DNA of 64,000 nucleotides from a virus: IMG/VR virus record IMGVR_UViG_3300038393_001027, positions 1 to 64,000 of that record; one strand, given 5' to 3'. The notes under the pieces were generated by a model that saw only the letters and a list, made by a program, of their open reading frames with translations, was not told the origin of the DNA and made no database searches. A program made the translations under genes and the position numbers. Below are positions 12,409 to 53,104 of the stretch, piece after piece (positions within the stretch are counted from its first letter, which is position 1; every line of letters begins with the position of its first letter).

Positions 12409-12467
12409 GGGGGAGGGAGGCCTCCCCCTCATTACTTACGTACACCCGCCTACTGGGGCTGTGACAG
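12409..12467 (-). promoter_or_regulatory. Class I cassette element, copy 3
   Basis: CTGTCACAG CCCCAGTAGGCG GGTGTAC GTAAG TAATGA GGGGGAGG..CCTCCCCC. Confidence 0.85.
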
Positions 12468-12758
12468 AGCCTCGATGAAGGCGGCGATGGCCCGGCGCTC
12501 GAAGTCCGTTACAGGCTGATCCGGAATGTCGGCATCAGACCGGGGTTCAGTCAGGGCGCCGTTCTCGTAGGCGATGAGGCGGTTCCCATCATGAAGCAGG
12601 TCGATATCGCCCTCGACGTTCAGGATCGTCAGTCCGGTCTCCTCATCCTTGGCGTCACCATGGGAAGGCTCGGCTCGGCACAGGCGCTGGTTCTCCTCCA
12701 AGTTGCTCAGGCGATTGGCGTGTGCCTCGGTCAGCAGGCGCTCGATGATCTCCTTCAA
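12450..12758 (-). CDS. Hypothetical protein ending inside element copy 3 (LSQPQ*)
   Basis: GGAGGGG RBS; the element supplies the stop codon. Confidence 0.65.
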   Translation of the reverse strand: MKEIIERLLTEAHANRLSNLEENQRLCRAEPSHGDAKDEETGLTILNVEGDIDLLHDGNRLIAYENGALTEPRSDADIPDQPVTDFERRAIAAFIEALSQPQ

Positions 12759-12777
12759 GGCGATCCCCTCCGCTACT

Positions 12778-12798
12778 AGTTTGGACGATCTTGGACGT
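12778..12798 (-). promoter_or_regulatory. Class II promoter-like site
   Basis: ACGTCCAA GATCGTC CAAACT. Confidence 0.45.
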
Positions 12799-12800
12799 TT

Positions 12801-12995
12801 CTACTCGTCGGCGCTGTTGTCGTAGGGCGGGATGCCCGTCTCCTTCGACAGGGCCTCAGCCTTCTTCTGGATCCGGTCCCAGTCGGTGTCCTTGGCAAGG
12901 ATGGCGGTCGGGTCTACCGAATCCGCGTAGTCGATCCCCAGCCGGGGGCCAGTCGGGGTCGTCAGCTTCACCACGCACAGAACGTCAGCGGCCAT
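12801..12995 (-). CDS. Small hypothetical protein
   Basis: AAGGAG RBS. Confidence 0.55.
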   Translation of the reverse strand: MAADVLCVVKLTTPTGPRLGIDYADSVDPTAILAKDTDWDRIQKKAEALSKETGIPPYDNSADE

Positions 12996-13043
12996 GCAAG
13001 CGCACACTCCTTTCAGAATGGAACGGGGCGCCACCCAGCGCCC

Positions 13044-13370
13044 CTACTCGTCGTTCCCGGCCGGGAAGTCGTCAGCCGGGTCCTCGTACTCCAGTTCCTG
13101 CGGGAAGTCATCGTACTTGGCGGCTTCATGCTCAAGCTCAGCGTCTTCGCCTGCACACAAGCAGGGCCGCTCGCCGCAGGATGCGCACACGTCGCTGTTG
13201 AAGCACGCCCACGAAGCGTAGATGTTGCCCGCGCCGTCGTCAACGAAGCCGGGGCTGTTCTCATCAGCGGCCTCTTCGTCAGGGACCGGGCGCCCACAAC
13301 CACAGGCGCACTTGGCGTTCTCGCTGGGGAACATCTGGTCACGGGCCTGCCGGATGGTCAAGTCATCCAT
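13044..13370 (-). CDS. Acidic Cys-rich hypothetical protein
   Basis: CACGCG and CASCGERPCLC; very acidic. Confidence 0.6.
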   Translation of the reverse strand: MDDLTIRQARDQMFPSENAKCACGCGRPVPDEEAADENSPGFVDDGAGNIYASWACFNSDVCASCGERPCLCAGEDAELEHEAAKYDDFPQELEYEDPADDFPAGNDE

Positions 13371-13749
13371 TCTGCTTCGCCTCCAGTTCGCCAAGCTTGG
13401 CATTCATCTGCGCAATCGAGGCCATAAGTTCACGGAATTCAGTTTCCTTCCGGTCCTCGACCGCTGTCCGTGCCGTCTGCACAGCGTGCTGGGCGCGGGA
13501 CTGGTGATGCGTGATGAAGCCCAGCGTCGTGGCGTCGTCTGGGTACAGGACTTGGAAGGCCATACGCAGACCGTCAATGACACCAGCCTGCGCAACTGCT
13601 ATCTGTGTACGGGTTTCCAGACCTAGCAGGGCACTCGGAGCGTCGATCTCGGTCAGGTTTAGAACCGTCTCGGCTGTGATGCGAACCAGTTCGACAAGGC
13701 GCGTCTTGGTTTCGATCCGGCGCTCGATGGGCTTGCTCTCGTCAGTCAC
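13363..13749 (-). CDS. Hypothetical coiled-coil protein
   Basis: AAGGAGG RBS before GTG. Confidence 0.6.
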   Translation of the reverse strand: MTDESKPIERRIETKTRLVELVRITAETVLNLTEIDAPSALLGLETRTQIAVAQAGVIDGLRMAFQVLYPDDATTLGFITHHQSRAQHAVQTARTAVEDRKETEFRELMASIAQMNAKLGELEAKQNG

Positions 13750-13761
13750 GGTGATTCCTCC

Positions 13762-14223
13762 TTACCAGCAGATGGCGTTCTTGTCCTTGACCACACGAAC
13801 CGGGGCGGCCAGCTTCGGGGCCTCCAGCTTGAAGGTGCCGATGACCTCAACACCGCCGCGCTTGGGGACCCAGATCTCTTCCTTCGTCATGACGGCGCCG
13901 CTCATCTTCTTGATCAGGGCCTTGATCTCCTTGTCGGTCAGCTTGTCGAAACGCTCGGCGGCCTCAGATGCCCAGTTGAAGCGCTCGCCATACTTACCAA
14001 GGCAGATGGGACCCACGCCCAACTCGCGGCTCACATGGTTGGTCAGGTCAGCGCCACACCAAGCGCAGTTCACATGGGGCTTCGGGACCATCTTGACGTT
14101 GCGGATCAGGATGCCCTTCTCGGTCTCACGAATGACCTCGCCGGAGACGATGCGGGCGATGCCCTTCTGCTGGGCGATGAAGCGGGACAAGGTAACCTCA
14201 ACAACCTTACCGACGAGAGTCAT
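13762..14223 (-). CDS. DUF6011-like Zn-binding protein
   Basis: CAWCGADLTNHVSRELGVGPIC matches the CxxCGxxLTxxxSxxxGxGPxC signature. Confidence 0.7.
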   Translation of the reverse strand: MTLVGKVVEVTLSRFIAQQKGIARIVSGEVIRETEKGILIRNVKMVPKPHVNCAWCGADLTNHVSRELGVGPICLGKYGERFNWASEAAERFDKLTDKEIKALIKKMSGAVMTKEEIWVPKRGGVEVIGTFKLEAPKLAAPVRVVKDKNAICW

Positions 14224-14250
14224 GATGGGTAACCCCCTGATGTTTATTGG

Positions 14251-14307
14251 AGGGGGCGGGGCGCCCCCTCATTATTGAAGTACACCCGGCTACTGGGGCT
14301 GTGACAG
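14251..14307 (-). promoter_or_regulatory. Class I cassette element, copy 4
   Basis: CTGTCACAG CCCCAGTAGCCG GGTGTAC TTCAA TAATGA GGGGGCG..CGCCCCCT. Confidence 0.85.
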
Positions 14308-14547
14308 CTCCTTTTCAAAGTTCCGATAGGCTTCATTCGGCGTCACAAGTCCTTGTCGGCAGTCTGCCAGTAGCGCCGGGTCTTCCTTTTGCAGGGCGGC
14401 TTCGGCGCCGGGTGACAGCGACGAAATCTTACCTGCTTCCAACCACCGCCGCACATCCGGGGTGTTGTGGCTAGTGCCCATGTACAGGTGAGCATTCAGT
14501 TCGTAGAGGCACCAGAGATGAAACTTGGTGGCGAATTGCAGTTGCAC
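14290..14547 (-). CDS. Hypothetical protein ending inside element copy 4 (LSQPQ*)
   Basis: AGGAGG RBS; stop codon lies in the element. Confidence 0.65.
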   Translation of the reverse strand: MQLQFATKFHLWCLYELNAHLYMGTSHNTPDVRRWLEAGKISSLSPGAEAALQKEDPALLADCRQGLVTPNEAYRNFEKELSQPQ

Positions 14548-16085: not shown

Positions 16086-16112
16086 GATGGTATCCGCTCC
16101 TTTGGTTTGATT

Positions 16113-16172
16113 GGGGGCGGGGAGGCCGCCCCCTCATTATTCTCGTACACCGGGCCTCTAGGACTGTGACAG
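16113..16172 (-). promoter_or_regulatory. Class I cassette element, copy 5
   Basis: CTGTCACAG TCCTAGAGGCCC GGTGTAC GAGAA TAATGA GGGGGCGG..CCGCCCCC. Confidence 0.85.
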
Positions 16173-16553
16173 GCGTCCCCGGCGGCGCCCAGCGCCTCGG
16201 CTAGGCAGATTATCCAGCATCTGCAGTAGCTCGCGCTCCAAAGCTGTCTCCGTGTCAGGCTGTTGCTGACGCTTCGCCTTCTCGGTGGCGATGAACCCGT
16301 CAAGCTGGTCTTTGTGGACTGCCCAGCACCAGTGCCCAGAACGTGTCCGGCGCAGGTCCCAGCGGTCAGCCTGCGCGTAGGTGTACTTCATGACGTCCTT
16401 GGGAGTTGCCTTGGCCTGCTCGACCGTGATGAAAGCCTTGACCCGGTAGCCCTTCGCCGGATCGACCGGATGCCCCAGCACGAAGAATTCACCGTTCAAC
16501 TCGCCAACCACGATGTAGCCCTTCGATTGGCCCTTCAGTATCTTGCGTGCCAT
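16158..16553 (-). CDS. Hypothetical protein ending inside element copy 5 (LSQS*)
   Basis: Stop codon lies in the element. Confidence 0.6.
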   Translation of the reverse strand: MARKILKGQSKGYIVVGELNGEFFVLGHPVDPAKGYRVKAFITVEQAKATPKDVMKYTYAQADRWDLRRTRSGHWCWAVHKDQLDGFIATEKAKRQQQPDTETALERELLQMLDNLPSRGAGRRRGRLSQS

Positions 16554-16554: not shown

Positions 16555-16746
16555 CTAGTTCACCACCACTTCCACGCCAAAGAGAGCACCGATGGCCTTC
16601 AAGACGCCGGGCCGGACCCGGTTATAGCGTGCGGATGCCAACGACGTACGGAGAATCATGGCGGGATCGTCGCCATGAATTAGCTCGGAAACACGCACGA
16701 TGGCGCGGGCCTGCTGACGAGCGAGGTTCACATTCTTGATCGTCAT
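16555..16746 (-). CDS. Small hypothetical protein
   Basis: First gene after element copy 6; GGAGG RBS. Confidence 0.6.
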   Translation of the reverse strand: MTIKNVNLARQQARAIVRVSELIHGDDPAMILRTSLASARYNRVRPGVLKAIGALFGVEVVVN

Positions 16747-16771
16747 AGCGTCTCAGCCTCCAGTGTTTGTT

Positions 16772-16824
16772 AGGGGGCTTCACCCTCATTACTTACGTAC
16801 ACCGGGCATCATAAACTGTGACGG
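16772..16824 (-). promoter_or_regulatory. Class I cassette element, copy 6 (AT-rich spacer variant at the strand switch)
   Basis: CCGTCACAG TTTATGATGCCC GGTGTAC GTAAG TAATGAGGGTG. Confidence 0.8.
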
Positions 16825-16834: not shown

Positions 16835-17248
16835 ATGCGCGGTGACACGCATCTACTGGCCGGGGCCGCCTTCGGCGTCGTGGCAGGCCTCACTGACCCG
16901 GTAAGCTGGGGCGCCCTGCTCTTCGGCTCGCTTCTGCCCGACATCGACCACCACGCCAGCCCCATCGGCCGCTGTGTACCTTTTGTGCAGAAGCTTGCTG
17001 GGCACCGGGGCCTACTCCACAGCGTCACCGTCGGCATGGGGCTGGGTGTAGCTGTGCACCCATGGCTGGGCATCGGGTACCTGCTCCATGAACTGCTCGA
17101 TACCTTCAACCCCAGCGGTGGTAAGTTCCTCTGGCCCTTCGTCCCCGATCGGATCAAATGCCCGTGGGGTGTCATCCGGACGGGTAGCGGCGGCGAACTA
17201 CTCGTGCGGGCGCTGTTGGTAAGCATAATTGTAGCCCGGCTGTTCTAG
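16835..17248 (+). CDS. YdjM-like membrane-bound metal-dependent hydrolase
   Basis: TH..GSLLPDIDH..GHRGLLHS..GYLLHELLDTFNPSG motifs of the YdjM family; GGGGGTG RBS. Confidence 0.8.
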   Translation: MRGDTHLLAGAAFGVVAGLTDPVSWGALLFGSLLPDIDHHASPIGRCVPFVQKLAGHRGLLHSVTVGMGLGVAVHPWLGIGYLLHELLDTFNPSGGKFLWPFVPDRIKCPWGVIRTGSGGELLVRALLVSIIVARLF

Positions 17249-17262
17249 CCGGGCTGTTTTGT
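17233..17262 (+). terminator. Intrinsic terminator
   Basis: AGCCCGGC-TGTTCTA-GCCGGGCT followed by GTTTTGT. Confidence 0.7.
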
Positions 17263-17276
17263 TGGGTGTTTCGCTC

Positions 17277-17303
17277 ACCGGGTCCATCTGGCAGGCATAA
17301 TCT
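17277..17303 (+). promoter_or_regulatory. Putative sigma-K-like (mother-cell) promoter
   Basis: AC-N17-CATAATCT between the terminator and the RBS; low-information consensus. Confidence 0.35.
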
Positions 17304-17332
17304 GGCCCACAACCTTGAAAGGGGCTGTTGCC

Positions 17333-17533
17333 ATGGACCTGATGGCCTTCTCGAAGCTGGCAGGCGCCCTACTGGCGACGTCATTTCTGGCGTCTGCGCT
17401 GGACTCCATGGGCTATCCAGCCACTGCCCGGCTCTTGAACTTGGGCGGAACGCTCCTGCTGGGCTGGAACCTCCTACAGATCGGCCTGAAGTTCTATCAG
17501 GCCGCTATGAGCCTGCTGGGTGAGTTCGTCTGA
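17333..17533 (+). CDS. SpoIIIAC/AD-like small membrane protein
   Basis: KLAG....SFL...LDSMG...A.LL.L.G pattern and 66-aa length parallel SpoIIIAC (QIAG..VAFLHTILDQMGKKEYAQWVTLLG, from memory); TGATG-coupled to the next gene. Confidence 0.55.
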   Translation: MDLMAFSKLAGALLATSFLASALDSMGYPATARLLNLGGTLLLGWNLLQIGLKFYQAAMSLLGEFV

Positions 17534-19881
17534 TGAAGCTTTACACCATCCTGACGCCTAGGGGCGATGCCCCAGACCCCAGCGCCTTTGTAGCCCTATG
17601 GGAGTCACTCTATGCCGTGCACCACCCGTCGCCAGAGACCTATTTCACGCTGGAATGGCACGCCAAAGCCGGGGAAGTGACCCTCCGGGCCGCTGTGCCG
17701 GATGGCCTGTTCCCCATCTTTGAGCGTGCATGGGCCGCCGTACACCCGGCGGTGGAGTTTGTTGAAGCGTCAGACCCACTGGCCGATTGTGTTGGCGAGA
17801 TGGCCGCCGCCCGGCTCACCTTGTGGGATCACTTCATGTTTCCGCTCGCGCAGGAGTACCGCCCAGCCGCCGACCCGGTAACCGGGCTGATCAGCGCCTT
17901 GGGTGGTCTGGGCGAGCAGGAACAGGTTTGCGTGCAGGTCACCCTGCAACCCGTTCATTTGCGGCATACCAGCCGTTTGGAGCACACATGGCAGGCCTAC
18001 CAGCGCTCGGGCGCCCGGCCCAGCCGGACACCCGAAGCCCTTTGCGACTGGCCGACCGCCCTAGAACTGCCCATCGGCATGCTCTACACCGTAGCTGACT
18101 GGGCCTATCGCTATACGCAGGGGCGCGGTCAGCGGGCGTCACAGGTCCTGCCGGAAGTCGCAGGTAGCGTCCGGCGGAAGATCGATGGCCGCTACTTGCT
18201 CGATGCTACCGTCCGGATACTCGCTGTGGCCGCTGACGCCGGATCCGCCGACACCAACCTTGCCGCAGTCGTTTCGGCGTTCGCACCCCTCGCTCACCAA
18301 AACCGCTGGCACACCCACAGAGAGGATGCAACCACGCTTCTGCCGTTAATGCGCGCACGGTCCCGCCCCTTCCACAAAGAGAACTTCCTTGGCCCTGCTG
18401 AACTTGCCGCCATGCTTCATACCCCGGCGCCCCAAACCCCGCTGTTCAAGCGCCTCCCCAGTCGTAGGATGCCCGTTCCAGACGGCATTCAAACCTACCC
18501 AACCATAGAAGCGGCTCAGGCCGCTGGGGCGATCGTGATAGGAGTAAGCCGCTACCGGGGTACAACCCGCTACATCGGCTTTACCAACCTGCGAATGCTC
18601 ATGCAACACCTTTACTGCATCGGCGCCACCGGGTCCGGCAAGACCACCATGCTTCAGCTTATTGCCCTACAGGTTGCAGTACAGCATGGGGCCGGACTGA
18701 CCTTCTTCGATGTGAAGGGCGACGCCGTAAAGCACCTGATGACCTACCTGCCAGAAGCCGCCCGCAACCGTGTTATCTACATCGACCTGTCACAGGACCT
18801 CTGGTTCATGCCCTTCAACGTCCTCCGCTTCCCCGGTCTGGACCTGCTGGACCTCGTGACACTGATCGTCAACGTCTTTCTGGCGATCTTCGGCGAACAG
18901 TCCATTCAGGCGCACAGCCAGAAGATGTTGCGAGCCTCACTCATCGCCATCTTGGAACAAGACCCCGACGCCACGCTCTATGAAGCCTACCGCATGTTCA
19001 CAGACGCCGCCTACCGCCAGCGCATTATTGCAGGCATGGAGCGTCAGACCGAGTACCCCCATGACGTACTTCACTTCTGGCGGATCTACGATGACCCCAA
19101 GGGCATGGGCGAGAAACGGCCGGATTCAGCCGCCATTCAGAACAAGCTGGAGTACATCCTACAGGCAACGAAGCCCAAACACATGCTGACCCAACCGGGT
19201 TTGGCCTTCGATTGGCGTGAAGCCATGGACTCCTCCAAGATCGTCCTTGTGAACCTCGACATCGGCCGAAATGACCCCACCATTCAGAAGTTCTTCGGGA
19301 CCCTGTTCACCCGACTCATCCTGAAGGCCGCATTCAGCCGCTCCGATCAGCCAGAAGCAGACCGGGTACCACATCTGTTCATCCTCGATGAGTTTGAGCA
19401 GTTCACGGAGCAGAGCGGCGAGTTCGCAGACCTACTGGCCCTTGCCCGTGCCTACGGGCTGGGGCTGTGCCTCACCCATCAATCAGTGAAGCAACTCGAT
19501 GACCGCATGCTCAGCCTCATCGCCGACAACACCTTCACCCAGATCAGCCTGATGATCGGTGATGGCTCTTCTGGGCGCATTTCGAAGCTGTTTCCCGGCT
19601 TCCAGCCCGACGATCTAACCAGCCTGCTCTGTGGGTCAGCTACCGGGTTTGAAGGGGTTGCCCGGCTCAGGAAGCTGGACCCCCAGCCGTTCACCTTTAA
19701 CACACTGGCCGTAGAGGACCTGTTTGAGCCACAGGGTTCTGTTGAAAACCTGATTCAAGACCAACACCAACGCCTTTACCGCCCAAGAGCCGCCGTGCAG
19801 GCTGAACTGGCCGCCCGCCGGGGCGCCTCGGCCCAGATTGACACCAGCGGGGCTGTGAAACGGAAAAAGCCCCCAGCCTAA
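17533..19881 (+). CDS. VirD4/TraD/TrwB-like type IV coupling ATPase (FtsK/HerA superfamily)
   Basis: HLYCIGATGSGKT (Walker A), FFDVKGD, FILDEF (Walker B), ARAYGLGLCLTHQSVKQL. Confidence 0.85.
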   Translation: MKLYTILTPRGDAPDPSAFVALWESLYAVHHPSPETYFTLEWHAKAGEVTLRAAVPDGLFPIFERAWAAVHPAVEFVEASDPLADCVGEMAAARLTLWDHFMFPLAQEYRPAADPVTGLISALGGLGEQEQVCVQVTLQPVHLRHTSRLEHTWQAYQRSGARPSRTPEALCDWPTALELPIGMLYTVADWAYRYTQGRGQRASQVLPEVAGSVRRKIDGRYLLDATVRILAVAADAGSADTNLAAVVSAFAPLAHQNRWHTHREDATTLLPLMRARSRPFHKENFLGPAELAAMLHTPAPQTPLFKRLPSRRMPVPDGIQTYPTIEAAQAAGAIVIGVSRYRGTTRYIGFTNLRMLMQHLYCIGATGSGKTTMLQLIALQVAVQHGAGLTFFDVKGDAVKHLMTYLPEAARNRVIYIDLSQDLWFMPFNVLRFPGLDLLDLVTLIVNVFLAIFGEQSIQAHSQKMLRASLIAILEQDPDATLYEAYRMFTDAAYRQRIIAGMERQTEYPHDVLHFWRIYDDPKGMGEKRPDSAAIQNKLEYILQATKPKHMLTQPGLAFDWREAMDSSKIVLVNLDIGRNDPTIQKFFGTLFTRLILKAAFSRSDQPEADRVPHLFILDEFEQFTEQSGEFADLLALARAYGLGLCLTHQSVKQLDDRMLSLIADNTFTQISLMIGDGSSGRISKLFPGFQPDDLTSLLCGSATGFEGVARLRKLDPQPFTFNTLAVEDLFEPQGSVENLIQDQHQRLYRPRAAVQAELAARRGASAQIDTSGAVKRKKPPA

Positions 19882-19904
19882 GCTGGGGGCTCCCTATAAG
19901 GAGG

Positions 19905-20762
19905 ATGCCGAGTTTGCGCCGCCACAAACTAACACCCTTAGAAAGGGTTCTCGCTTCGCCGCGACTTACCTGCCGGGATAAAGAGGTACTTTTTACCATC
20001 GGGCGCCTCCGGCTGGTAACCCCCCGCCTGCTGGCCGAAGTATTCCTGCCCTGCTATCCGGAAGCTTCCGCGCTGGTTATCATCCGGCGGCGGTTAAAGG
20101 TCCTGCTGGACCTAGGCCTGATCGACCGCTGGCGCCCCCGGCTGGCCCCCGGCAAGGGTACGGCGGAGTACGTCATACTGCTCACGAGCCTCGGCAAAGA
20201 GTTTCTGCAGTTCTTCAGCGGCTACACGTGCCGGATCGGAAGCCCAAGCCAACCGCTTGGGATTGTTCAATCCACGATGCACACTTATGAGGTAAGCACA
20301 CGGCTCTATCTTCCCATCCTTCGGGCAACGCGCCAGCGTCAGCTTCAACTCCGTGAGTACGCCGTGGAGGACGGTTTGCATTGTCCCGATGTGCCAGCCT
20401 GTAACAAGCCACGGATCCGGCTGTTCCCTGATCTCACGCTCAAACTCGGTACGCCAGACGATGAAAGCGACTTCTACCTGTGTTTCGAATGGGATCGTGG
20501 GACCATGACAGTTAAGCAACTCCTGCAGAAACTTGACCGTTACGATCGATTCTGTCGAACGACCCGATGGGCACCTGTCTGTGCTTTCGTGACCACCAGT
20601 TGGCACCGAGTTCTGACCGTGGCAAAAGCCATTACGCATTGTAGTCCTCCTCTGCAAGTTCCATGGCACTTGACCGCTATCGAAGACTTCGAGCGCAACC
20701 CGCTAGGTCGCATCTGGGTCCGGCCGGGCGCCCTTGATACAGCAGTACCACTCCCCGTCTAA
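19905..20762 (+). CDS. Replication-relaxation (Replic_Relax) family nuclease
   Basis: LTCRDKEVL..RRRLKVLLDLGLI wHTH; H..; FPD..; FEWDRGTM..KLDRY signature; AAGGAGG RBS. Confidence 0.8.
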   Translation: MPSLRRHKLTPLERVLASPRLTCRDKEVLFTIGRLRLVTPRLLAEVFLPCYPEASALVIIRRRLKVLLDLGLIDRWRPRLAPGKGTAEYVILLTSLGKEFLQFFSGYTCRIGSPSQPLGIVQSTMHTYEVSTRLYLPILRATRQRQLQLREYAVEDGLHCPDVPACNKPRIRLFPDLTLKLGTPDDESDFYLCFEWDRGTMTVKQLLQKLDRYDRFCRTTRWAPVCAFVTTSWHRVLTVAKAITHCSPPLQVPWHLTAIEDFERNPLGRIWVRPGALDTAVPLPV

Positions 20763-44732: not shown

Positions 44733-44753
44733 GATGATGCCCTCCTTTGTGCT

Positions 44754-44812: not shown

Positions 44813-45103
44813 CTAACCCTGCGGCGTCCGGTACAGCCGGAAGTCCCCCTGCCAGTCCTCACCCGGCTTGGGCGTCTTGCCTTGGAACTTCAGGTCCCCC
44901 CAGCCAACGGCGATGTACCGCTCGCGCAGGATCTTCTCAACCGCCCCGTTGGGGTCCAGATCCTTCTCCGTGATGGTGACGAAGATAATCTCACCGATGC
45001 CCTTCGCCATCGCCACCCGGTCGATCTCTGCGTCAATGATCTTCTCCAGCTTGGCCGCCTTCTCCAGAATGGCCGTCTTACCGTGGTTCGGTCCCAGTGC
45101 CAT
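44813..45103 (-). CDS. Hypothetical protein whose stop abuts element copy 9
   Basis: AAGGAGG RBS; TAG is directly followed by CTGTCACAG. Confidence 0.65.
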   Translation of the reverse strand: MALGPNHGKTAILEKAAKLEKIIDAEIDRVAMAKGIGEIIFVTITEKDLDPNGAVEKILRERYIAVGWGDLKFQGKTPKPGEDWQGDFRLYRTPQG

Positions 45104-45116
45104 GACTAGACCCTCC

Positions 45117-45419
45117 TTAAAAGTCGCTGATCCGTCCACCGTATCGCCGGACGCTCGCCCGGACACCCTCTGCTACGATCTGGTTGTAGGTCTCTTGGTC
45201 TGACCGCCGGATGTCGTCTTGGTCAGCCTGATAAGAAGCCCCCTCGTCAGGCATAAACTCCGGATCCTCCGGGTACGGCTGGTTCAGCGGAACGTTGATG
45301 CCTGCACCGCACCCACTGCACTTTGTTGCCTCAAGCTGATCTAGCGAGTGGACCACATGCCCGTTCGTATGACCGCACAGCGGGCACTGAAGCGTTACCT
45401 TGATCGTCGGTAGATTCAT
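45117..45419 (-). CDS. Zn-ribbon hypothetical protein
   Basis: CPLCG..CSGCG. Confidence 0.6.
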   Translation of the reverse strand: MNLPTIKVTLQCPLCGHTNGHVVHSLDQLEATKCSGCGAGINVPLNQPYPEDPEFMPDEGASYQADQDDIRRSDQETYNQIVAEGVRASVRRYGGRISDF

Positions 45420-45531
45420 CAGTCAGTCACCCCCAAATCTGAATGGCCCCGATCAGCAGAGCCAGCAGAATCATCGTCAGAATCGCCGCCGGAATCGCGT
45501 ACACCCACCGCATCCGGATCACCTCGGACCT

Positions 45532-45552
45532 AGCATACCCGATTCTAGACGA
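45532..45552 (-). promoter_or_regulatory. Class II promoter-like site
   Basis: TCGTCTAG AATCGGG TATGCT. Confidence 0.45.
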
Positions 45553-45585
45553 TAATGCACAATCCGAACGCTGGGAAAGGTCGGG

Positions 45586-46029
45586 TTAGGTCCCGGCCAA
45601 ATCCTGCTGATGTTGTGTCTGGACCCCGGCTCGCTCCAAGAAGGCCAGCGGTTTGTCGTCACGGTACAACTCCGCGTAGACCACCCGGCTGATGCCCTCA
45701 GTCACCATGCGCTTGGCGCAGTTCATGCAAGGCGATAGCGTCAGGTAGACCGTGGCACCCCGCAGATCCAGTCCACGGGCGACGGCCTTTAAGATAGCGT
45801 TCTCCTCCGCATGTCGGGTCCGGTGACACCCCTCACCCTCACCGGGGATCTGCAGGCAACCCACCTCTGTGCAGTGGGGGTGCCCGGCCGGGGCGCCGTT
45901 GAAACCGATCGTCAGTACGTCCTTCCCCTTCACGATGACAGCGCCAACCTGCTTTCGGGGACAGGTCCCCATGGTAGCGGTCAGAGCGGCCATCTGCAGG
46001 AAGAACTCGTCATAGCTGGGGCGCCCCAT
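45586..46029 (-). CDS. dCMP deaminase
   Basis: TCPRKQVGAVI, GFNG, HAEENA, PCMNC. Confidence 0.9.
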   Translation of the reverse strand: MGRPSYDEFFLQMAALTATMGTCPRKQVGAVIVKGKDVLTIGFNGAPAGHPHCTEVGCLQIPGEGEGCHRTRHAEENAILKAVARGLDLRGATVYLTLSPCMNCAKRMVTEGISRVVYAELYRDDKPLAFLERAGVQTQHQQDLAGT

Positions 46030-46319
46030 CAGTAGAGCACCCCGCCGCTGTACTGGTCATCGGTCAGGTCGAAGGTGGGTGGCACGGCGCCCTGTTCCAC
46101 GTAGAGCACGTGATGGCGCTCGTAGAGCCGGGGGTTCACCCGCTTCACGAGGATGAAGTCAGACCCGCTGTGCTTCTCCTCCGCTATCTGGGCCTCAGCG
46201 TCCGTGTAGGGCTGGCACTGCTCGACAACACCCGTCAGCAGGTAACCATGAGGGGTCTCACGCTCCAGCACCCCGAAGATGGGCGGTCGATCGTCGATGA
46301 AAAACAGCTTCACGTCCAT
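46029..46319 (-). CDS. Hypothetical protein
   Basis: Overlap-coupled ORF. Confidence 0.6.
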   Translation of the reverse strand: MDVKLFFIDDRPPIFGVLERETPHGYLLTGVVEQCQPYTDAEAQIAEEKHSGSDFILVKRVNPRLYERHHVLYVEQGAVPPTFDLTDDQYSGGVLY

Positions 46320-46558
46320 TAGTAGATCACCTCAGCCTTCCAAGCGTCGTCCGTTAGGTTCTTGTCGATCAGGGGTAGATGGAACGGGGCCAGTAACAGC
46401 CATTCCGTGGTACCAGCGATGCCCGGCACGGCCTCCTCAGCCGCCCGCCGGAGCTTCGTGTTCAGTTCCGCTGAAACCGCCGCCACCTTGGTCCCGACAG
46501 GCCATGGCCCCGCCTTGAAATAGGCGTCCACAGCCTGCCCCAGCAGATTCTGGGTCAT
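46319..46558 (-). CDS. Hypothetical protein
   Basis: AGGAGG RBS. Confidence 0.6.
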   Translation of the reverse strand: MTQNLLGQAVDAYFKAGPWPVGTKVAAVSAELNTKLRRAAEEAVPGIAGTTEWLLLAPFHLPLIDKNLTDDAWKAEVIY

Positions 46559-46560
46559 GG

Positions 46561-46986
46561 TTACCCCTCCTGCACCTTGTAGACCTTTGCTGACACAACA
46601 TGGCCGTCCGGCTCAAACGTGGTCCGGATGCCTTGGCCTTCCTCGATTTCGGGACCACTGGCGCTCGTCGGCTCAGGAATCCCCTGTGCCTGCCGAAGCT
46701 CACGTGTCGCCAAAATCAACTGCTTGATCTGGTAGCGAGTGGCGTCCGTTTCGAAGTGTGGATGTGCCTCATTCTCGATCACCAGACCGAACTCGTTGGG
46801 GGCCAAACACACCCATGCGATGGGCAGATCACCGCCTCGGAAAAAGACGGCCGCATGGACCGGGATGGACCCCATCGCCTTCGGGATCCGCTTCATGCAC
46901 AGGTTGCCCTGCGCCACCTCCTCAGCCCCGTTGATGATCTGCAAGAGCATTCGGGACCGCTTGCGCCGCACAATGACATTCGTCAT
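46561..46986 (-). CDS. Hypothetical protein
   Basis: Tightly packed ORF. Confidence 0.6.
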   Translation of the reverse strand: MTNVIVRRKRSRMLLQIINGAEEVAQGNLCMKRIPKAMGSIPVHAAVFFRGGDLPIAWVCLAPNEFGLVIENEAHPHFETDATRYQIKQLILATRELRQAQGIPEPTSASGPEIEEGQGIRTTFEPDGHVVSAKVYKVQEG

Positions 46987-46992
46987 GATCGG

Positions 46993-47304
46993 TCAAACCC
47001 CTTTCTTGTTCAGCCACGGTAACCGAAACTGACTCAGGTCCGTCACGGGCAGACCCTGCGCCAGCCGCTGGCGCCGGATGTGGTTGTTCAGATCGTCCCG
47101 CCGGGTGTTCTCCACGAGGATGGCCCGGTCCACATCAGCCGGGATGGTTGCCCCTTGAAAGTCGCCCTCAGCCACATTCAGCCCGTCGATCAGGGATTGA
47201 AGCGGATCCGCTTCAACCTGTACAGGTTGGGCTGGGGCCAGAAACGCCATGATCCGGGCCTCAACCGCCGCATAGTTCCCCGTCAGCCACTCCAGCGTCT
47301 TCAT
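46993..47304 (-). CDS. Hypothetical protein, possibly YaaL/DUF2508-like
   Basis: AEGDFQGATIPADVDRAIL resembles the F..AtdpdlID.AI pattern; weak match. Confidence 0.4.
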   Translation of the reverse strand: MKTLEWLTGNYAAVEARIMAFLAPAQPVQVEADPLQSLIDGLNVAEGDFQGATIPADVDRAILVENTRRDDLNNHIRRQRLAQGLPVTDLSQFRLPWLNKKGV

Positions 47305-47570
47305 CGCCCCGCCGCTCCTTCCGCATCGTCCTCGATGGTACCCAGCATCCAGCCCATCAACTCGCACAACCGGAAGAGCCGCTTCAGCGCCCGGATGTTG
47401 CGCCTCGCCACGGGCAAAACCCGCTCGAAGTTCCGCCGCTTCAGTTCCAATTCCGGAGACAAGGGCTGGGGCAACGCATTCAGGTCCCGGATGCCCAAGA
47501 GCAGAGAGTTCTCCCGACTCTCTGCTCTCCTCAGCGCCCACTCCAAGGCCTCCAGCAAGTCTTCGTTCAC
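47301..47570 (-). CDS. Hypothetical protein
   Basis: Tightly packed ORF. Confidence 0.55.
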   Translation of the reverse strand: MNEDLLEALEWALRRAESRENSLLLGIRDLNALPQPLSPELELKRRNFERVLPVARRNIRALKRLFRLCELMGWMLGTIEDDAEGAAGR

Positions 47571-47572
47571 GA

Positions 47573-48589
47573 TTACATCCCGACTCCCGTCCAGTAGTAG
47601 ATCGGATTTGCGTCAGCCGGGACTTCGTGGGGCCGCTCTGACCAGCTTGCATAGACCGGAACAAGCCGCTTGAACCACTCGATGTTGATGCCTGCCGCCT
47701 CATCCACGTTGTAGGTGTCGATGTACTGGAAGATCTGGCTACCCTCGTAACCACCGTAGAAGGTACCATAGATGCTCTGCCTGCGCTGGAAGAGTTGATC
47801 CATTCGCACAGCTTCGCCCTTCATGAGCCGCAGGCCAAACTCCTTTGCCTCCGGATCAATCTCCTTGTGCTGGTCAACATACGTCTGGATCCACGCTGAA
47901 TTGACCAGCGTCGCATGATGCCACGGGTTACCCATGCGGGCGAAGAGCAACTCAGCCCGCTGGTAGTTCAGTACATTCAGCCCCGTCCGTGACTGGACAA
48001 TCGTACGCCACACCTTAGGGCCAAAGTCGTAAATCCGAGGGTTCATGGCGTAGCCTGCAATCGCCTTCTCGCCTTTCTGCCCGAAGATGGTCACCCGCTT
48101 CGGCTCCTGATGCTTGAGCAGGGCCTCGCCAAACGGCCGCAGGAGTTCCCGCCGGGCCGCCGCTTCCCCCTCTACGCCGATGGCGCTCCAGCTAAACCCG
48201 AAGGAAATCTCCCGACGCCACGCCTCGGGCGTCATCCACTGGGCAAAAGATCGCTCGTCGATCAGCCGCATGAACGCCCGGCCCAGATCAGTCGGCACGG
48301 GCGCCGGGCAGTTGCGCTTGTCACGGTCGTAGTGACACTCGTGCTCACCTACGTACTCGATCAGCCCCAGCCGCTTCAACTGCTTGATCTGCTTCAGGTC
48401 AAGGCTGAGTTCGTCTTCAAAGTAGTGCTTGCAGACACCACTGCCCCAGCCGTCCAACAGCCGATAGAACATGCCATACAAGGCATCCTTGGTGGTCGGC
48501 GTCAGCTTGATCATGTAGTCAGCTTCCGTCACCGGGTTCTGATACAGTAAGGGCGCCGGGGCCTTATGCGACCAGATCTGCATGGACAT
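47573..48589 (-). CDS. Hypothetical protein with N-terminal wHTH-like segment
   Basis: KQIKQLKRLGLIEY..PTDLGR. Confidence 0.7.
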   Translation of the reverse strand: MSMQIWSHKAPAPLLYQNPVTEADYMIKLTPTTKDALYGMFYRLLDGWGSGVCKHYFEDELSLDLKQIKQLKRLGLIEYVGEHECHYDRDKRNCPAPVPTDLGRAFMRLIDERSFAQWMTPEAWRREISFGFSWSAIGVEGEAAARRELLRPFGEALLKHQEPKRVTIFGQKGEKAIAGYAMNPRIYDFGPKVWRTIVQSRTGLNVLNYQRAELLFARMGNPWHHATLVNSAWIQTYVDQHKEIDPEAKEFGLRLMKGEAVRMDQLFQRRQSIYGTFYGGYEGSQIFQYIDTYNVDEAAGINIEWFKRLVPVYASWSERPHEVPADANPIYYWTGVGM

Positions 48590-48632
48590 GAGGAATCGCG
48601 CTCCTTTTGATTGGGGCGGGCGCCCCGTGGTG

Positions 48633-48929
48633 TTAGGCCTCGATCAACGGGACCTTAATGATACTGACGGTTGTCACCCAATAAAACGACACGTCAACAC
48701 CCTTGAAGCCATGGCGCCGAAGCACTGTTTGCACAGGATTCCGGCCACCCGCCAGCCGCTTCTGCAAGATACGCTCACTGTAGTCGCAGTTGTACAGGTC
48801 CTTCTGTAGCGCATCCGCCTTTGCCTCAGCCTGTGGTCCGGCGAAGACACCCACGATGTCTAGCCGCTCGTGGGGATCATCGCCTGCCATGACCACGTAA
48901 GCCAACGTGAACTTTGCCATGATCTTCAC
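48633..48929 (-). CDS. Hypothetical protein
   Basis: Leader hairpin and AAGGAG RBS. Confidence 0.6.
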   Translation of the reverse strand: MKIMAKFTLAYVVMAGDDPHERLDIVGVFAGPQAEAKADALQKDLYNCDYSERILQKRLAGGRNPVQTVLRRHGFKGVDVSFYWVTTVSIIKVPLIEA

Positions 48930-48971
48930 TCCTTGGGGGCCGGGTGGTCCGGCCCCCCCTCGCCGCTTGGT

Positions 48972-49658
48972 TTAGAAGCTGAAGTCGTAGTACTCACTCC
49001 GGGCGCCCAGCCCGATGGAGTAGTTGCGATCCTTGATCGTACCCTTGATCCAGTAGATCCGCCCGTTACGCTCGACCCGCCGGGCGTCGTAGGTCTGGCC
49101 CTCCGGGTCCCGCTCGAAGCGGTAATCCTGCGATTCGCTCATGCCGTTCGTGTCAATGCGCTCGGCTCGGTCCTGCTGGACCTCGACGCCCTTGACCCGG
49201 CCGTCCTTGGTGAACAGGACCTTGCTGACCGTGGCCGCATGGCGGTCGCTGAACATGATGACCGTCGCCGGGGCGCCCACCACCGGGCCGATGACGTCGT
49301 AGATCATGGAGAGGATGCCGCCCTCACCGTGCGGGTAGTCCGTCCGGTTGTCATAGGGGACCACGTTCCCTGCCGGGTCTACGATCTGGTAGTGCCGCTC
49401 GATGCGCTCCTCCGGGGCCTTGCCGGGCGGGCGCACCGTGAAGGTATGCGTGTCGGTCAGGTAGAGCTTGTAGCCAGCCGCATGGAGCTTTGCCATGGTC
49501 TCGGCCAGCACCTCCGGCACCATCTCGGTGGAGTCGGTCGGATGCGGGCCGTTCGGTAGCTCAGTCCACGTGGAGCGGTCACGACGGTTCGGTAGGTTGG
49601 CGATGACGGTCTGCAGGCGGGAGCTAGTCTGCTGGGTGCTCATACGTTCGGTGGTCAT
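48972..49658 (-). CDS. Phage hypothetical protein
   Basis: First gene after element copy 10; SDRHAAT..NGMSESQDY..YYDFSF. Confidence 0.7.
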   Translation of the reverse strand: MTTERMSTQQTSSRLQTVIANLPNRRDRSTWTELPNGPHPTDSTEMVPEVLAETMAKLHAAGYKLYLTDTHTFTVRPPGKAPEERIERHYQIVDPAGNVVPYDNRTDYPHGEGGILSMIYDVIGPVVGAPATVIMFSDRHAATVSKVLFTKDGRVKGVEVQQDRAERIDTNGMSESQDYRFERDPEGQTYDARRVERNGRIYWIKGTIKDRNYSIGLGARSEYYDFSF

Positions 49659-49682
49659 GTGGTTATCCCCCTTGTTGTTGAT

Positions 49683-49743
49683 GGGGGGCGGGGTTGCGCC
49701 CCCCTCATTACTCTCGTACACCGGGCCTCTGGCGCTGTGACAG
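49683..49743 (-). promoter_or_regulatory. Class I cassette element, copy 10
   Basis: CTGTCACAG CGCCAGAGGCCC GGTGTAC GAGAG TAATGA GGGGGGCG..CGCCCCCC. Confidence 0.85.
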
Positions 49744-49747
49744 TCCT

Positions 49748-49770
49748 AGTGTAGCCGGGTCCTTGGACAA
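49748..49770 (-). promoter_or_regulatory. Class II promoter-like site in tandem with copy 10
   Basis: TTGTCCAA GGACCCGGC TACACT. Confidence 0.45.
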
Positions 49771-49807
49771 ATATGCACAATCAGAAGCCCACAAAGCCGG
49801 GGCAGGA

Positions 49808-50206
49808 CTAGAATGGATGCTCCGGCAGGGCGCCCTCAAGACCCAGCGTCTCGATGACCCGCTCAACAGAACCTACCCGGTCACCCTCTTCCAGACCCTC
49901 GAAGATGGCGTCACGCACTGCCTCAGCCTTGGACTTGGCCGCTAGGCAGGCGTCGTCGCTCTTTTTGCCAACACCGACGAAGAAGCACAGGACTTCGGTT
50001 TCCGGTCCGAAGTTGTCGCTGTACCCACCGCTGACCGTAGAGACAGCCAACACTTGGTACCCCACGATGATCTTGCCGTCCGGAGCATTCTTCAGCCCCA
50101 CAGACCGCGCCTGTGCATCCGTCAACCCGTGCCACAGGGGCAGGACCTCGATCTTGAAGCACTGATCCGTATTAACCGGGGTCCCGTCTAGCGCTCTAAT
50201 CCACAT
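49808..50206 (-). CDS. Hypothetical protein
   Basis: GAGGAGG RBS before MWIRALDG. Confidence 0.6.
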   Translation of the reverse strand: MWIRALDGTPVNTDQCFKIEVLPLWHGLTDAQARSVGLKNAPDGKIIVGYQVLAVSTVSGGYSDNFGPETEVLCFFVGVGKKSDDACLAAKSKAEAVRDAIFEGLEEGDRVGSVERVIETLGLEGALPEHPF

Positions 50207-50552
50207 CTTCCACAGCCTCCTCGTGGGTGACGCCAGCCGCCCGCTGGATCTGTTCAATGAAGTCCTGCCGGAACCGCCCGTCCTCGTCATAGTTGGCCGG
50301 GTCGGCGCCGGGTACGTGCCAGCCGAACATGGACCCTGCACTCATCGCCTCAGCCTGCCCCTTGGTGATGCCCATCTCCGCGTTCAACTCGTCGGCCGGG
50401 AGCTTGCGCATGTGCTCATCCTTGAGCGGGTAGAAGCCCATCTCACCCCGGCGGATGCCGATCGTCTCCCCGGTCGTCCGGTTGGTACCGTAACAGGCCG
50501 CCGGAAGTCCTCCGAACGTCGGATGCACCTTGTACAGATCCTGCTCAGACAT
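50196..50552 (-). CDS. Mobile-element hypothetical protein
   Basis: IRRGEMGFYP..ADELN..GIT..AEAM..GSMFGW.VPGADP motif. Confidence 0.7.
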   Translation of the reverse strand: MSEQDLYKVHPTFGGLPAACYGTNRTTGETIGIRRGEMGFYPLKDEHMRKLPADELNAEMGITKGQAEAMSAGSMFGWHVPGADPANYDEDGRFRQDFIEQIQRAAGVTHEEAVEDVD

Positions 50553-50593
50553 GTGTACTCGCTCTCCTTTCAGATGTGGGCCGGGGCCGGGGG

Positions 50594-51217
50594 TTACCCG
50601 GCCTGCTTCTTGTTCTTGGTACCTTCAGCCTTGCCTGCCGACTTGCCACGGGCGCCGCTGGCGCCCTTCTTGGCGTCATGTGACACCTTAGGCGTCTTCG
50701 ACGTCTTGGGCGCCGCCTTGGTCTTGCTGGGGGCCTTGGGCGGGGTCTCAGGGGCGGCGCGTTCAGCAAGCTCCGCAAGCTGGCGCCGATCCGCCCGTGC
50801 CGCCCGGCCCGCCGCTCGTTTGGCCTGCGTATCGGCCTGCACCTTATCCCACCCGGTCAACTCCCGTTTGGCCGGGGTCTGCGCCTCAAACACGATGGGG
50901 GTCTCAGCCTTGGCCTTAGCTGGCTTGGCCGGGCGCTCAGGCTTGGTGGGCGCCTTGTACTCGACACCCTTGAGCTTCCCAAGGATGCCCTCGAACAGAT
51001 CAGCCTCCAGAAGCTGGGGCTTCTCAAAGCCCGGCTTCCCGTCAGCACCGATGGAGCGCTGGGCAATCTTCACGAAGTGCTTCGTGATGCCGTGCGCAAC
51101 CATCGTCGATTCAACGACTCGAACCTCCGTCTGGGTCTCCGTGTTCTGCCGGATGAAGCTCGCCAGCGTACGGCCCTCGATGAATTCGTAGTCCGTCTTC
51201 TGCTTATCGTCTGCCAT
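50594..51217 (-). CDS. Putative DNA-binding protein with histone-like Lys/Ala tail
   Basis: First gene after element copy 11; C-terminal half is very K/A-rich. Confidence 0.65.
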   Translation of the reverse strand: MADDKQKTDYEFIEGRTLASFIRQNTETQTEVRVVESTMVAHGITKHFVKIAQRSIGADGKPGFEKPQLLEADLFEGILGKLKGVEYKAPTKPERPAKPAKAKAETPIVFEAQTPAKRELTGWDKVQADTQAKRAAGRAARADRRQLAELAERAAPETPPKAPSKTKAAPKTSKTPKVSHDAKKGASGARGKSAGKAEGTKNKKQAG

Positions 51218-51244
51218 GTGTGATGCAACCCCTTCGGTTTGATT

Positions 51245-51305
51245 GGGGGCGATAGTCGCCGCCCCCTCATTATTTCCGTACACCGGGCCTCTAGGCCTGT
51301 GACAC
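51245..51305 (-). promoter_or_regulatory. Class I cassette element, copy 11
   Basis: GTGTCACAG GCCTAGAGGCCC GGTGTAC GGAAA TAATGA GGGGGCG..CGCCCCC. Confidence 0.85.
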
Positions 51306-51506
51306 AGCCTTTATCAGCAGGCTTGCGGCATAGCCGTGCCAGCGCTCGTCATCAAGTTGGGTCTCCGTGAAGACCACCATCGTACGGCCACGCCGGACAA
51401 TCCGGCGCACCTTGCCCGGCCGGGATGTTCCGGCCGGGCGCCGCAAGGCTACCATGTCACCGATGACCACCCGGCCATCCCAGATCGTGGCGCTTTTGCA
51501 GTCCAT
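51291..51506 (-). CDS. Small protein ending inside element copy 11 (VSQA*)
   Basis: Stop codon lies in the element. Confidence 0.55.
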   Translation of the reverse strand: MDCKSATIWDGRVVIGDMVALRRPAGTSRPGKVRRIVRRGRTMVVFTETQLDDERWHGYAASLLIKAVSQA

Positions 51507-51507
51507 G

Positions 51508-51975
51508 CTAGGCGCCCTGCTTCCAGTAACGGTTCTCGATGGGGCCGTGGTTCATGACCGTATCACAGTCGTACATGGCCCAGCGTCCGGTTGACACCGA
51601 CTCAAAGCTGAATGGAGCCACAATCTCAATCTTCTCGATGACCTTACCGCTGACATCCATGTCTACGATCAGATCACCTACCGATAAGCTGTTCATGTTG
51701 TAGCAATCATACCCTGCCTGCCGAGCCTCCTCATCCAGATGCTCCAACACACCAACCGGATCCTCTTCAACCCGGTTGAACTCACGGAAGATGTGCTGAT
51801 CACGCTGAAGCGGAGTTAGCTCACCTTCCCAGACCATGCGGTAGAGGGGCGCTGTCTTCTCGGTGAAGCATCCCTTCCGTGCGTCAAAGTAGGCCTTCAG
51901 CGTCTCCGAGTCAATTGGCTGACCTGCCCCATCGAAAACCTTATTCATGTCGATCTGGTAGATGCGAACCATCAT
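51508..51975 (-). CDS. YodL-like domain protein
   Basis: RIYQI..YRMVWEGEL..IFREFN..SLSVGDLIV. Confidence 0.65.
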   Translation of the reverse strand: MMVRIYQIDMNKVFDGAGQPIDSETLKAYFDARKGCFTEKTAPLYRMVWEGELTPLQRDQHIFREFNRVEEDPVGVLEHLDEEARQAGYDCYNMNSLSVGDLIVDMDVSGKVIEKIEIVAPFSFESVSTGRWAMYDCDTVMNHGPIENRYWKQGA

Positions 51976-52032
51976 GCTGATGACCACCTTTCGTTTGATG
52001 GGGGCGGGGTGGCCGCCCCCGTTGTGCCTTAG

Positions 52033-52710
52033 CTACGCTGAGACAACTACCACGGCGTGCTCCAGCGTCGGGATCTCCTGCCGACGGTTCCGGTCGTAGC
52101 CTTGCGATGCCCACAGCAGGTAGAACCGATCGTAGATCTTCTCGACCATGGCCGTTTGCACCCCAGCCTTGTAGACGTACCACTGGTTCTCGTTCTCCTG
52201 CAGGATCTCGATGGCCTCCGGGTCGGTCACCTTGAAGGGGACGTGATCGAACAGGGAAACACGCTTCAACTTACCGCCTACGCAGATGTAGGCCTCATGA
52301 TCCGACTTCAGCGTTCCATTCGGGAAGTAGCACTTCGTCCACGCGATGGCGTGTGCCACCTGCTGAGGCTTACCCGTCAGTCCATGGAGGTGGGTACCCA
52401 TATCCCGAACCACCCAGACGAAACCGTTTGTCAGATAGTCAGGGTGCTTCGCCAGCGCCTCTAAGTCATGCAAGAAGTCCTCGTGGTAGGCGTTGATCTT
52501 CTTCGATGCGATCTCGGCCATCTGCTGGACCACCGGGTTGGCGCCCAGCTTGCGCCACAGACGCTGGATGCTCTTCAGCCGGGCCTCGTACGTGCGAAGC
52601 TCTTCCATACGGAACTCGGTAGAGCCGTGCTCCTCGATGCAGGCCTTCATGCTCTGAATGCCGTCTTTGCACTTGGTCTCGATCACGGTCACAATGGCAG
52701 GCTTCGTCAT
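52033..52710 (-). CDS. Hypothetical protein
   Basis: First gene after element copy 12. Confidence 0.7.
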   Translation of the reverse strand: MTKPAIVTVIETKCKDGIQSMKACIEEHGSTEFRMEELRTYEARLKSIQRLWRKLGANPVVQQMAEIASKKINAYHEDFLHDLEALAKHPDYLTNGFVWVVRDMGTHLHGLTGKPQQVAHAIAWTKCYFPNGTLKSDHEAYICVGGKLKRVSLFDHVPFKVTDPEAIEILQENENQWYVYKAGVQTAMVEKIYDRFYLLWASQGYDRNRRQEIPTLEHAVVVVSA

Positions 52711-52734
52711 GGTGGGGTCCCCCTTGGTTTTGTT

Positions 52735-52792
52735 GGGGGCGCAGGGCGCCCCCTCATTTCTCTCGTACACCGGGCTACTGAAGCTGTGACAC
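52735..52792 (-). promoter_or_regulatory. Class I cassette element, copy 12
   Basis: GTGTCACAG CTTCAGTAGCCC GGTGTAC GAGAG AAATGA GGGGGCGC..GCGCCCCC. Confidence 0.85.
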
Positions 52793-53104
52793 CTTGGTAT
52801 AGATGGCGTTCAGCCGCCGCAGGTACTCATCCGCCCGGCCACGGAGCCAGTCGATGCGGCCAGCCTCGTCCTCGGAGAAGACCGGGCCGTAGCTGTTAAG
52901 ACCGTCGATGAAGTTCAGTACGCCAATCGCCCGCGCCAGCCAGCGGCTGGCATTCTTGTAGTACTCCGCTAGACGGCGCCCAGCCGCCGGGTTGGAGAAT
53001 GCGTACTCAGCAACGTTTTCAGCCGCCTTTAAAATCTCTAAGGTCTTGTCGATGTCCTGCGTCAGCGCCGCGATGCCTGCCTGCTGGGCCTTGATGTCAA
53101 GCAT
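52775..53104 (-). CDS. Hypothetical protein ending inside element copy 12 (VSQLQ*)
   Basis: AAGGAG RBS after a class II promoter; stop codon lies in the element. Confidence 0.65.
   Translation of the reverse strand: MLDIKAQQAGIAALTQDIDKTLEILKAAENVAEYAFSNPAAGRRLAEYYKNASRWLARAIGVLNFIDGLNSYGPVFSEDEAGRIDWLRGRADEYLRRLNAIYTKVSQLQ

Follow-up and report, generated by a model that had tools for sequence, protein, structure and literature searches.

We analyzed a repeated intergenic cassette, and the genes that end in it, in the virus record IMGVR_UViG_3300038393_001027. The record is a complete virus genome of 111,151 bp with terminal repeats and occurs in soil and rhizosphere metagenomes, with no RNA run among the listed datasets that contain it. 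The window referred to throughout is the stretch of 64,000 nucleotides that comprises its bases 1-64000. The genome has a GC content of ~60% and almost all of its genes are encoded on the minus strand, the sole plus-strand genes forming an island at ~16.8-21.3 kb. Terminase, portal, head and tail genes occupy the region from ~111 to 60 kb. The region from ~58 kb down to 1 kb encodes a DNA polymerase A, a primase-helicase, an SNF2 helicase, a ribonucleotide reductase, a clamp-like protein and numerous small ORFans. A megablast search against isolated phages gave no match, and the best protein matches among isolated phages were <40% identical. Rfam and tRNA scans of the window were empty.

The window holds 16 occurrences of the motif TGTCACAG, where 2.4 would be expected, and 15 of these lie on the minus strand. 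It opens an extended element, cTGTCACAG-N12-GGTGTAC, for which a profile scan of the whole 111,151-bp genome returned 12 strong matches, two weaker ones (at 16823 and 38038) and one partial match (at 103739), all on the minus strand. Fourteen copies of the resulting cassette are found between 7.5 and 58.2 kb, every one of them upstream of a start codon. Read 5' to 3' on the minus strand, the cassette consists of cTGTCACAG, a semi-conserved 12-nt spacer, the box GGTGTAC, the stretch G.nAnTAATGAGG, a hairpin, an A/C-rich stretch, a ribosome-binding site (RBS) of the GGAGG type and the start codon. The spacer is mostly CCCCAGTAGCCC or nCCTAGAGGCCC, and nnAnTAATGAGG stands directly after the GGTGTAC box, before the G5/C5-based hairpin. 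The gap between the two boxes is fixed at 12 nt (TGTCAC-N16-TGTAC). Start codons lie 73-90 nt from TGTCACAG where a hairpin is present and 52-56 nt from it in the two copies without one. Because this distance is fixed, we regard the cassette as part of the downstream gene.

GTCACAG and GGTGTAC are invariant in 14 of 14 window copies and in the copy of a relative, contig L018, whether or not an open reading frame (ORF) covers them, and TGTCACAG is equally invariant in the eight copies that no ORF reads. A strain variant from a soil run shows many differences around the copy at 51304, in the ORF, the hairpin loop and the leader, and none is listed between 51255 and 51341, a span that includes the core of that copy. 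The hairpin has a G5...C5 stem in 11 copies (-13 to -19 kcal/mol) and carries compensatory changes at stem positions 6-8 (C-G, G-C, T-A, A-T and T-G). It has no U tract and is not a classic terminator. The likeness between copies spans the whole ~85 nt, including the spacer subtypes and the leader, and we therefore consider that the cassettes spread as units.

Gene ends at the cassette

Six unrelated minus-strand ORFs run into the cassette in one frame and stop at its TAG, as the first-pass annotation of this sequence had noticed and as translation bore out. All six read (C/G)TG TCA CAG, and the TAG follows 11 or 14 nt after the T of TGTCACAG. At +14 it closes the ORFs at 12450-12758 (102 amino acids (aa), ending in ALSQPQ; cassette at 12385-12467, which holds the last five codons and the stop), 14290-14547 (85 aa, ELSQPQ; cassette at 14224-14307), 42115-42303 (a zinc-ribbon ORF of 62 aa, KLSQPQ; cassette at 42042-42132) and 52775-53104 (109 aa, KVSQLQ; cassette at 52711-52792). 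At +11 it closes those at 16158-16553 (131 aa, RLSQS; cassette at 16086-16172) and 51291-51506 (71 aa, AVSQA; cassette at 51218-51305, of the CTAGAGGCC spacer type, the one whose core is the same in the strain variant with differing flanks). All six proteins are ORFans.

Three more minus-strand ORFs abut the cassette, as had also been reported. The ORF at 8935-9135 (66 aa, with CxxC pairs) ends with a TAG in frame 1, 4 nt before the TGTCACAG of the cassette at 8848-8931. A TAG in the same frame ends the ORF at 44813-45103 (96 aa), 1 nt before the TGTCACAG of the cassette at 44733-44812. The ORF at 38044-38685 (213 aa, with zinc ribbons) ends with a TAA in frame 3, 5 nt before a degenerate cassette that lacks the hairpin (37983-38039). 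Treating the conserved C at -1 as part of the element reduces these distances to 0-4 nt. Overall, the upstream stop falls within -8 to +16 nt of TGTCACAG in 9 of the 13 copies that have a co-directional upstream gene.

Each of the six overlapping ORFs has a coding-type pattern of GC content at third codon positions (GC3), the weakest signal being that of 14290-14547, with a GC3 of 0.65 and below the gene-call filter. A clear Shine-Dalgarno-like motif precedes four of the six starts; it is weak at 16553 and 51506, both of which start right after an upstream stop. Homologs were scarce. Database searches with the 109-aa and 62-aa proteins matched the window's own proteins alone, and a full HMMER search with the 131-aa protein returned one strain variant, 86% identical and keeping the RLSQS tail, together with one irrelevant partial match. 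PHROGs and Pfam searches with the nine ORFs, six overlapping and three abutting, gave nothing useful.

For each of the 14 copies we located the first stop in each frame. Frame 1 (CTG TCA CAG) meets a stop 11-34 nt into every copy (14/14): a TAG or TGA at +11/+14 in 11 copies and a TAA at +32 in the other three, with a further TGA at +35 in copies that carry the hairpin. The first stop in frame 2 is 60-1290 nt away in 13 of the 14 copies, and in five this frame is that of the downstream gene. Frame 3 is closed within 28 nt in 5 of the 14. If the frames were free, the chance of finding all six ORFs in one frame would be ~0.4%. However, the shared frame is no independent signal, because that frame alone is closed by stops inside the element. 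The common frame and the L/V-S-Q residues can thus be attributed to the element's own sequence and the stops it makes available. TAG is a common stop in this genome and ends 47 of the 123 called genes.

The Ser and Gln codons (TCA CAG) show zero synonymous variation, and the residues that follow SQ (PQ, S, A or LQ) vary with the spacer subtype; copies that are not read carry the same subtypes. Because TGTCACAG is invariant in the unread copies and the tail residues track the spacer variants, the constraint is on the DNA and not on the peptide. The tail is very probably a by-product of gene ends that overlap a DNA-level regulatory cassette, a matter of ordinary tight packing rather than of gene capture or a protein tag. 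The packing is so dense that upstream genes finish at the 5' edge of the cassette or just a few codons past that edge. Frame 1 alone allows a gene reading into the cassette to close before the hairpin and the next RBS, and every overlapping gene is in that frame and gains (L/V)-S-Q and one or two spacer-encoded residues. A tail may have arisen through loss of a stop just upstream, the state shown by two abutting genes in the same frame, or through placement of a cassette over a gene end. A striking C-terminal peptide shared by several proteins can thus be a pure side effect of coding sequences that overlap constrained regulatory DNA, which calls for caution in the annotation of compact phage genomes.

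Related phages and the promoter reading

We searched for relatives in which the cassette could be compared. A primase-helicase query gave no match against viral contigs, and the cassette pattern gave none against metagenome contigs. Against viral contigs the cassette pattern had one real match, L018, the rest being chance. The helicase P0003 is 79% identical, and a metagenome scan did not yield its contig. An SNF2 helicase query returned a set of ~100-kb viral contigs that includes G001 (G001/L035), a contig of 104,950 bp with 45% GC, collinear with this phage over the helicase, primase-helicase and DNA polymerase.

In G001 an analogous cassette recurs 11 times on one strand. Its parts are aGCGTAGAG, an A-rich spacer, GTATGTATGgTAAgtATGAGGG, a hairpin, AAAACAAAA and then the RBS. 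The right half resembles TGTACGTAAGTAATGAGGGGG of this phage, whereas the first box differs. It is the layout of the cassette, not the sequence of its first box, that has been kept between these two distantly related soil phages of ~105-111 kb. One G001 copy lies directly before the helicase gene, and in this phage the copy at 44811 heads the helicase block. Eight of the 11 upstream ORFs of G001 end inside the cassette, in three frames and without a common tail (five at the TAG of the first box and three in the AT-rich spacer), and two more end 3 and 14 nt before it. Because G001 shows it too, the overlap of gene ends and cassettes is a habit of the lineage, and a common tail is absent where, as in G001, the cassette offers stops in several frames.

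In L018 (region 5609-6113), a cassette with a hairpin stands directly before a homolog (41% identity) of the gene at 57381-57923. In this phage an additional 69-aa ORFan (57916-58125) lies between the cassette and that gene, and the cassette copy (58126-58178) has no hairpin.

The context of particular copies points to a promoter. The copy at 16823, a variant cassette (CGTCACAG, 16747-16824), fills the 88-nt gap between the minus-strand gene at 16555-16746 and a divergent plus-strand gene that starts at 16835, so that a co-directional transcript cannot enter it and the site calls for a promoter. The copy at 58177 heads the non-structural gene region. Upstream of it stand a TTGTCCAAAG box and an intrinsic terminator formed by a GC hairpin and a run of T, and its counterpart in L018 likewise comes after a clear intrinsic terminator. 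We moderately favor reading the box pair as a phage-specific promoter. Such a promoter would be read by host RNA polymerase carrying a sigma-like module of the phage's own, with transcripts starting near AATGAGG and the hairpin at the 5' end of the mRNA.

The putative module, a divergent one of the sigma-70 family, comprises residues ~335-585 of a 2096-aa SNF2 protein encoded outside the window, at 83857-90147 of the genome (L031:57-6347, minus strand). At scores below the curated cut-offs, it matches the NCBIfam models TIGR02393 (RpoD C-terminal, E 8e-6) and TIGR02937 (extracytoplasmic function sigma factor, E 2e-5) over nearly their full length. In a structure model predicted from the single sequence (mean predicted local distance difference test score (pLDDT) 66), all top Foldseek matches were sigma factors from RNA polymerase holoenzyme structures, at E ~1e-3 and with low template modeling scores (TM-scores). 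The Pfam model Sigma70_r2 gave no match. The 2096-aa protein is a candidate cognate factor for the cassette boxes, and the cassette family provides a ready set of candidate promoters for a phage-borne sigma module. A sigma-70 consensus scan of 44000-60000, a region with six copies, turned up no site of the sigma-70 type in any copy. There was no match to a T7-type RNA polymerase either, a weak negative because the control for that family matched nowhere.

Promoters of phage sigma factors have been mapped in other systems. They include one type with two boxes 16 bp apart, transcription starts 6-9 bp beyond the promoter element, and related phages that keep promoter positions while the motif diverges (Lavysh et al. 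2022, PMC8948821). Examples are the motif tAATGTAtA of phiEco32 gp36 and GTAAtg-N16-aCTA of gp47 from Salmonella phage 7-11 (PMC8948821). The cassette resembles these in having a phage-specific motif other than sigma-70, a two-box spacing and positions kept despite divergence of the motif, here between this phage and G001. There are also differences: no sequence relationship to the cassette boxes is shown, the start sites are experimental there and predicted here, and the sigma-like module here is embedded in a 2096-aa SNF2 protein instead of forming a gene of its own. The cassettes head non-structural genes, in contrast to the 7-11 promoters, which head late genes.

Alternative explanations for the tails and the cassette

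The first-pass annotation had compared the cassette with the attC sites of integrons and had suggested that it supplies the stop codon of captured genes; alternatively, it had seen the shared C-terminus as a functional tag. Integron attC sites stand at the 3' end of their own cassette and require the tyrosine recombinase IntI. There is a real likeness, since in some integron cassettes, as here, an ORF ends inside a repeated element that holds a hairpin, and the element does supply the stop and the last four to five residues. The inference of capture is not supported, because the frame is forced, the element is tied to the downstream gene and searches of the complete 111-kb genome for tyrosine and serine recombinases (PF00589 and PF00239; controls positive) gave no match. 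No attC-like architecture was seen in the element either: its hairpin has an ordinary G5/C5 stem closed by a variable loop, and its boxes do not form an inverted repeat. The cassette is the 5' leader of the next gene, locked to its RBS and start codon, and all copies face one way across a stretch of 50 kb that encodes essential replication genes. It is therefore extremely improbable that the element is a recombination site of the attC type that ends captured cassettes on their 3' side. A degron, packaging or sorting signal would account for L/V-S-Q at the same C-terminal distance in six unrelated proteins, but selection on a peptide would hardly fix the codons for S and Q in every ORF and the same bases in eight copies that are not read, nor would it let the residues behind SQ change in exact step with the spacer. 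Neighboring genes that stop 1-5 nt earlier do without the tail, and in the related phage G001 gene ends overlap the cassette in the same way but use three frames and carry other tails. We accordingly consider a functional tag very improbable and did not retain it.

The element might also act at the level of RNA and not as a promoter. It would then be a conserved leader or a processing site placed at intervals along a long early transcript, with the hairpin stabilizing the 3' end of the upstream RNA or the 5' end of the downstream one and the overlap again arising from packing. The covariation of the hairpin, its want of a U tract and the strong RBS that ends each cassette at a fixed distance would all suit such a role, and repeated leader elements are known in other phages. 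Among these are the start-associated sequences of cluster K mycobacteriophages, reportedly described by Pope and colleagues in 2011 as ~13-nt repeats at the RBS with a proposed role in translation. Like the cassette, they are short conserved repeats in one orientation just upstream of many start codons; unlike them, the cassette has a two-box layout with its conserved part 50-90 nt upstream of the start. However, two invariant boxes kept at a fixed spacing while the sequence between them varies are typical of a DNA site, upstream of the copy at 16823 there is no co-directional transcript that could be processed, two copies retain the boxes without the hairpin, and Rfam has no match in the window. 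A role in RNA is thus rather unlikely. The nearest published analogue of the cassette is the promoter-early stem-loop (PeSL) of T4-type phages (Arbiol et al. 2010, PMC2839356; Comeau et al. 2014, PMC4122927). A PeSL spans the upstream stop codon, promoter boxes, a poly-G/poly-C stem-loop, the RBS and the next start codon, and PeSLs mediate the shuffling of ORFans through homologous recombination (PMC2839356). The two share the order of stop, boxes, G/C stem-loop, Shine-Dalgarno motif and start, and both are repeated, intergenic, in one orientation and enriched among small ORFans. They differ in that PeSL boxes follow the sigma-70 consensus (-35/-10), which TGTCACAG and GGTGTAC do not match, that the stem-loop of the cassette always comes after the second box, and that the stop lies inside the box spacer here but in an AT-rich zone before the -35 box in PeSLs. 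The genome is also that of an unrelated 111-kb GC-rich soil phage, not a T4-type phage, and the cassette is known from sequence alone. We conclude that the cassette forms a new sequence family within a known type of regulatory cassette.

Under PeSL-like shuffling, homologous recombination would act on the cassettes and bring in ORFans or remove them, with the sharp C/TGTCACAG edge as the junction and the tails as scars that replace native C-termini, only frame-1 fusions surviving. The homology of copies over ~85 nt, spacer subtypes, hairpin and leader included, the cassettes that bracket small ORFans and the documented exchange at PeSLs, which begin at an upstream stop codon (PMC2839356), speak for it. 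The difference in gene content beside the L018 cassette, where this phage has an extra ORFan and no hairpin, fits the PeSL picture as a single case. Yet this is the one cassette-adjacent indel seen, a native C-terminus was recovered for none of the six ORFs (0/6), and the cassette position upstream of the helicase block is shared with a distant relative, as would be expected of old sites passed on by vertical descent. In soil runs, joints between contigs do fall at cassettes (42004/44770, 52018/58138 and 58177/42089), but their sides measure 25-40 nt and such joints arise from repeats, so they were not used as evidence. We regard shuffling of this kind as improbable. Equally doubtful is the bolder idea of the cassette as a universal plug for gene exchange, in which an ORF recombined onto the 5' edge in frame 1 would be closed at once while the cassette drives the next gene, the tails being scars of ORFan capture in a phage lineage equipped with a sigma factor for these promoters. 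The first 35 nt of the cassette do hold three stops in one frame (TAG, TAA and TGA). If recombination at the cassettes were true, the PeSL concept would extend beyond T4-type phages.

Taken as a whole, we judge a 5' regulatory cassette of the downstream gene, with a passively acquired tail on the upstream one, to be the likely explanation. Several points weigh against it. Promoter activity, the site at which transcripts would start and translation into the element are all predictions from the DNA. The matches of the sigma module are below the curated cut-offs and its structure model is mediocre, with a mean pLDDT of 66. Of the three abutting genes, two likewise use frame 1, and the availability of stops gives no reason for this (the chance of at least two of three is p ~0.26). 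Finally, the spacer, hairpin and leader are more alike than a promoter alone needs, which points to the spread of whole cassettes by duplication or recombination; some gene ends may therefore stem from placement of a cassette and not from loss of a stop.

Remaining copies and other repeats

Three further window copies, all on the minus strand, stand apart from upstream gene ends. The cassette at 54040-54113 lies in a 390-nt AT-rich intergenic region and is without the TAG, its frame 1 being closed by the TAA at +32. That at 49659-49743 is also without the TAG; it lies ~66 nt past the upstream gene and is preceded by a TTGTCCAAGG box. The cassette at 7473-7557, ~186 nt past the upstream gene and preceded by a TTTGTCAAGG box, heads the gene of a 402-aa sliding-clamp-like protein. 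The partial match of the profile scan is a 15th copy of diverged sequence, CTGTCACAG..GGCGTAC followed at some distance by a hairpin, on the minus strand at 103709-103740 of the genome. It follows directly after the stop of the portal gene and is the sole copy in the structural half of the genome.

A second motif, (T)TTGTCCAAG followed 9-11 nt on by a TAnAnT-like box, occurs in seven copies on the minus strand and two on the plus strand and is mostly intergenic. Its minus-strand sites in the window are at 58755, 58214, 53147, 49770, 37714, 24731 and 7583. Three copies lie ~30 nt upstream of a TGTCACAG cassette, and the same motif precedes the L018 cassette. It could be a second promoter class or an operator. 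We considered its TTGTCC box as a sigma-70 -35 element and dropped this reading, as the spacing to the TAnAnT box is just 9-11 nt. A near-palindrome, CTTCCGAAG / CTTCGGAAG, has many copies in the relative phages L035, L043, L046 and L047, which are of diverse GC content, and sometimes sits inside cassette hairpin loops; this phage has 0 copies of it. It might be a site related to modification and restriction, or a binding site.

The plus-strand island spans 16835-21303 of the window. Its first gene encodes a membrane-hydrolase-like protein of 137 aa and lies 11 nt from the cassette copy at 16823. Another protein of the island, 782 aa long, weakly matches the terminase large subunit in its ATPase region. 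The terminal repeat (1-104 of the window and 111048-111151 of the genome) is made of tandem 31-nt units, the first 30-mer recurring at 1, 32 and 63 and at 111048, 111079 and 111110.

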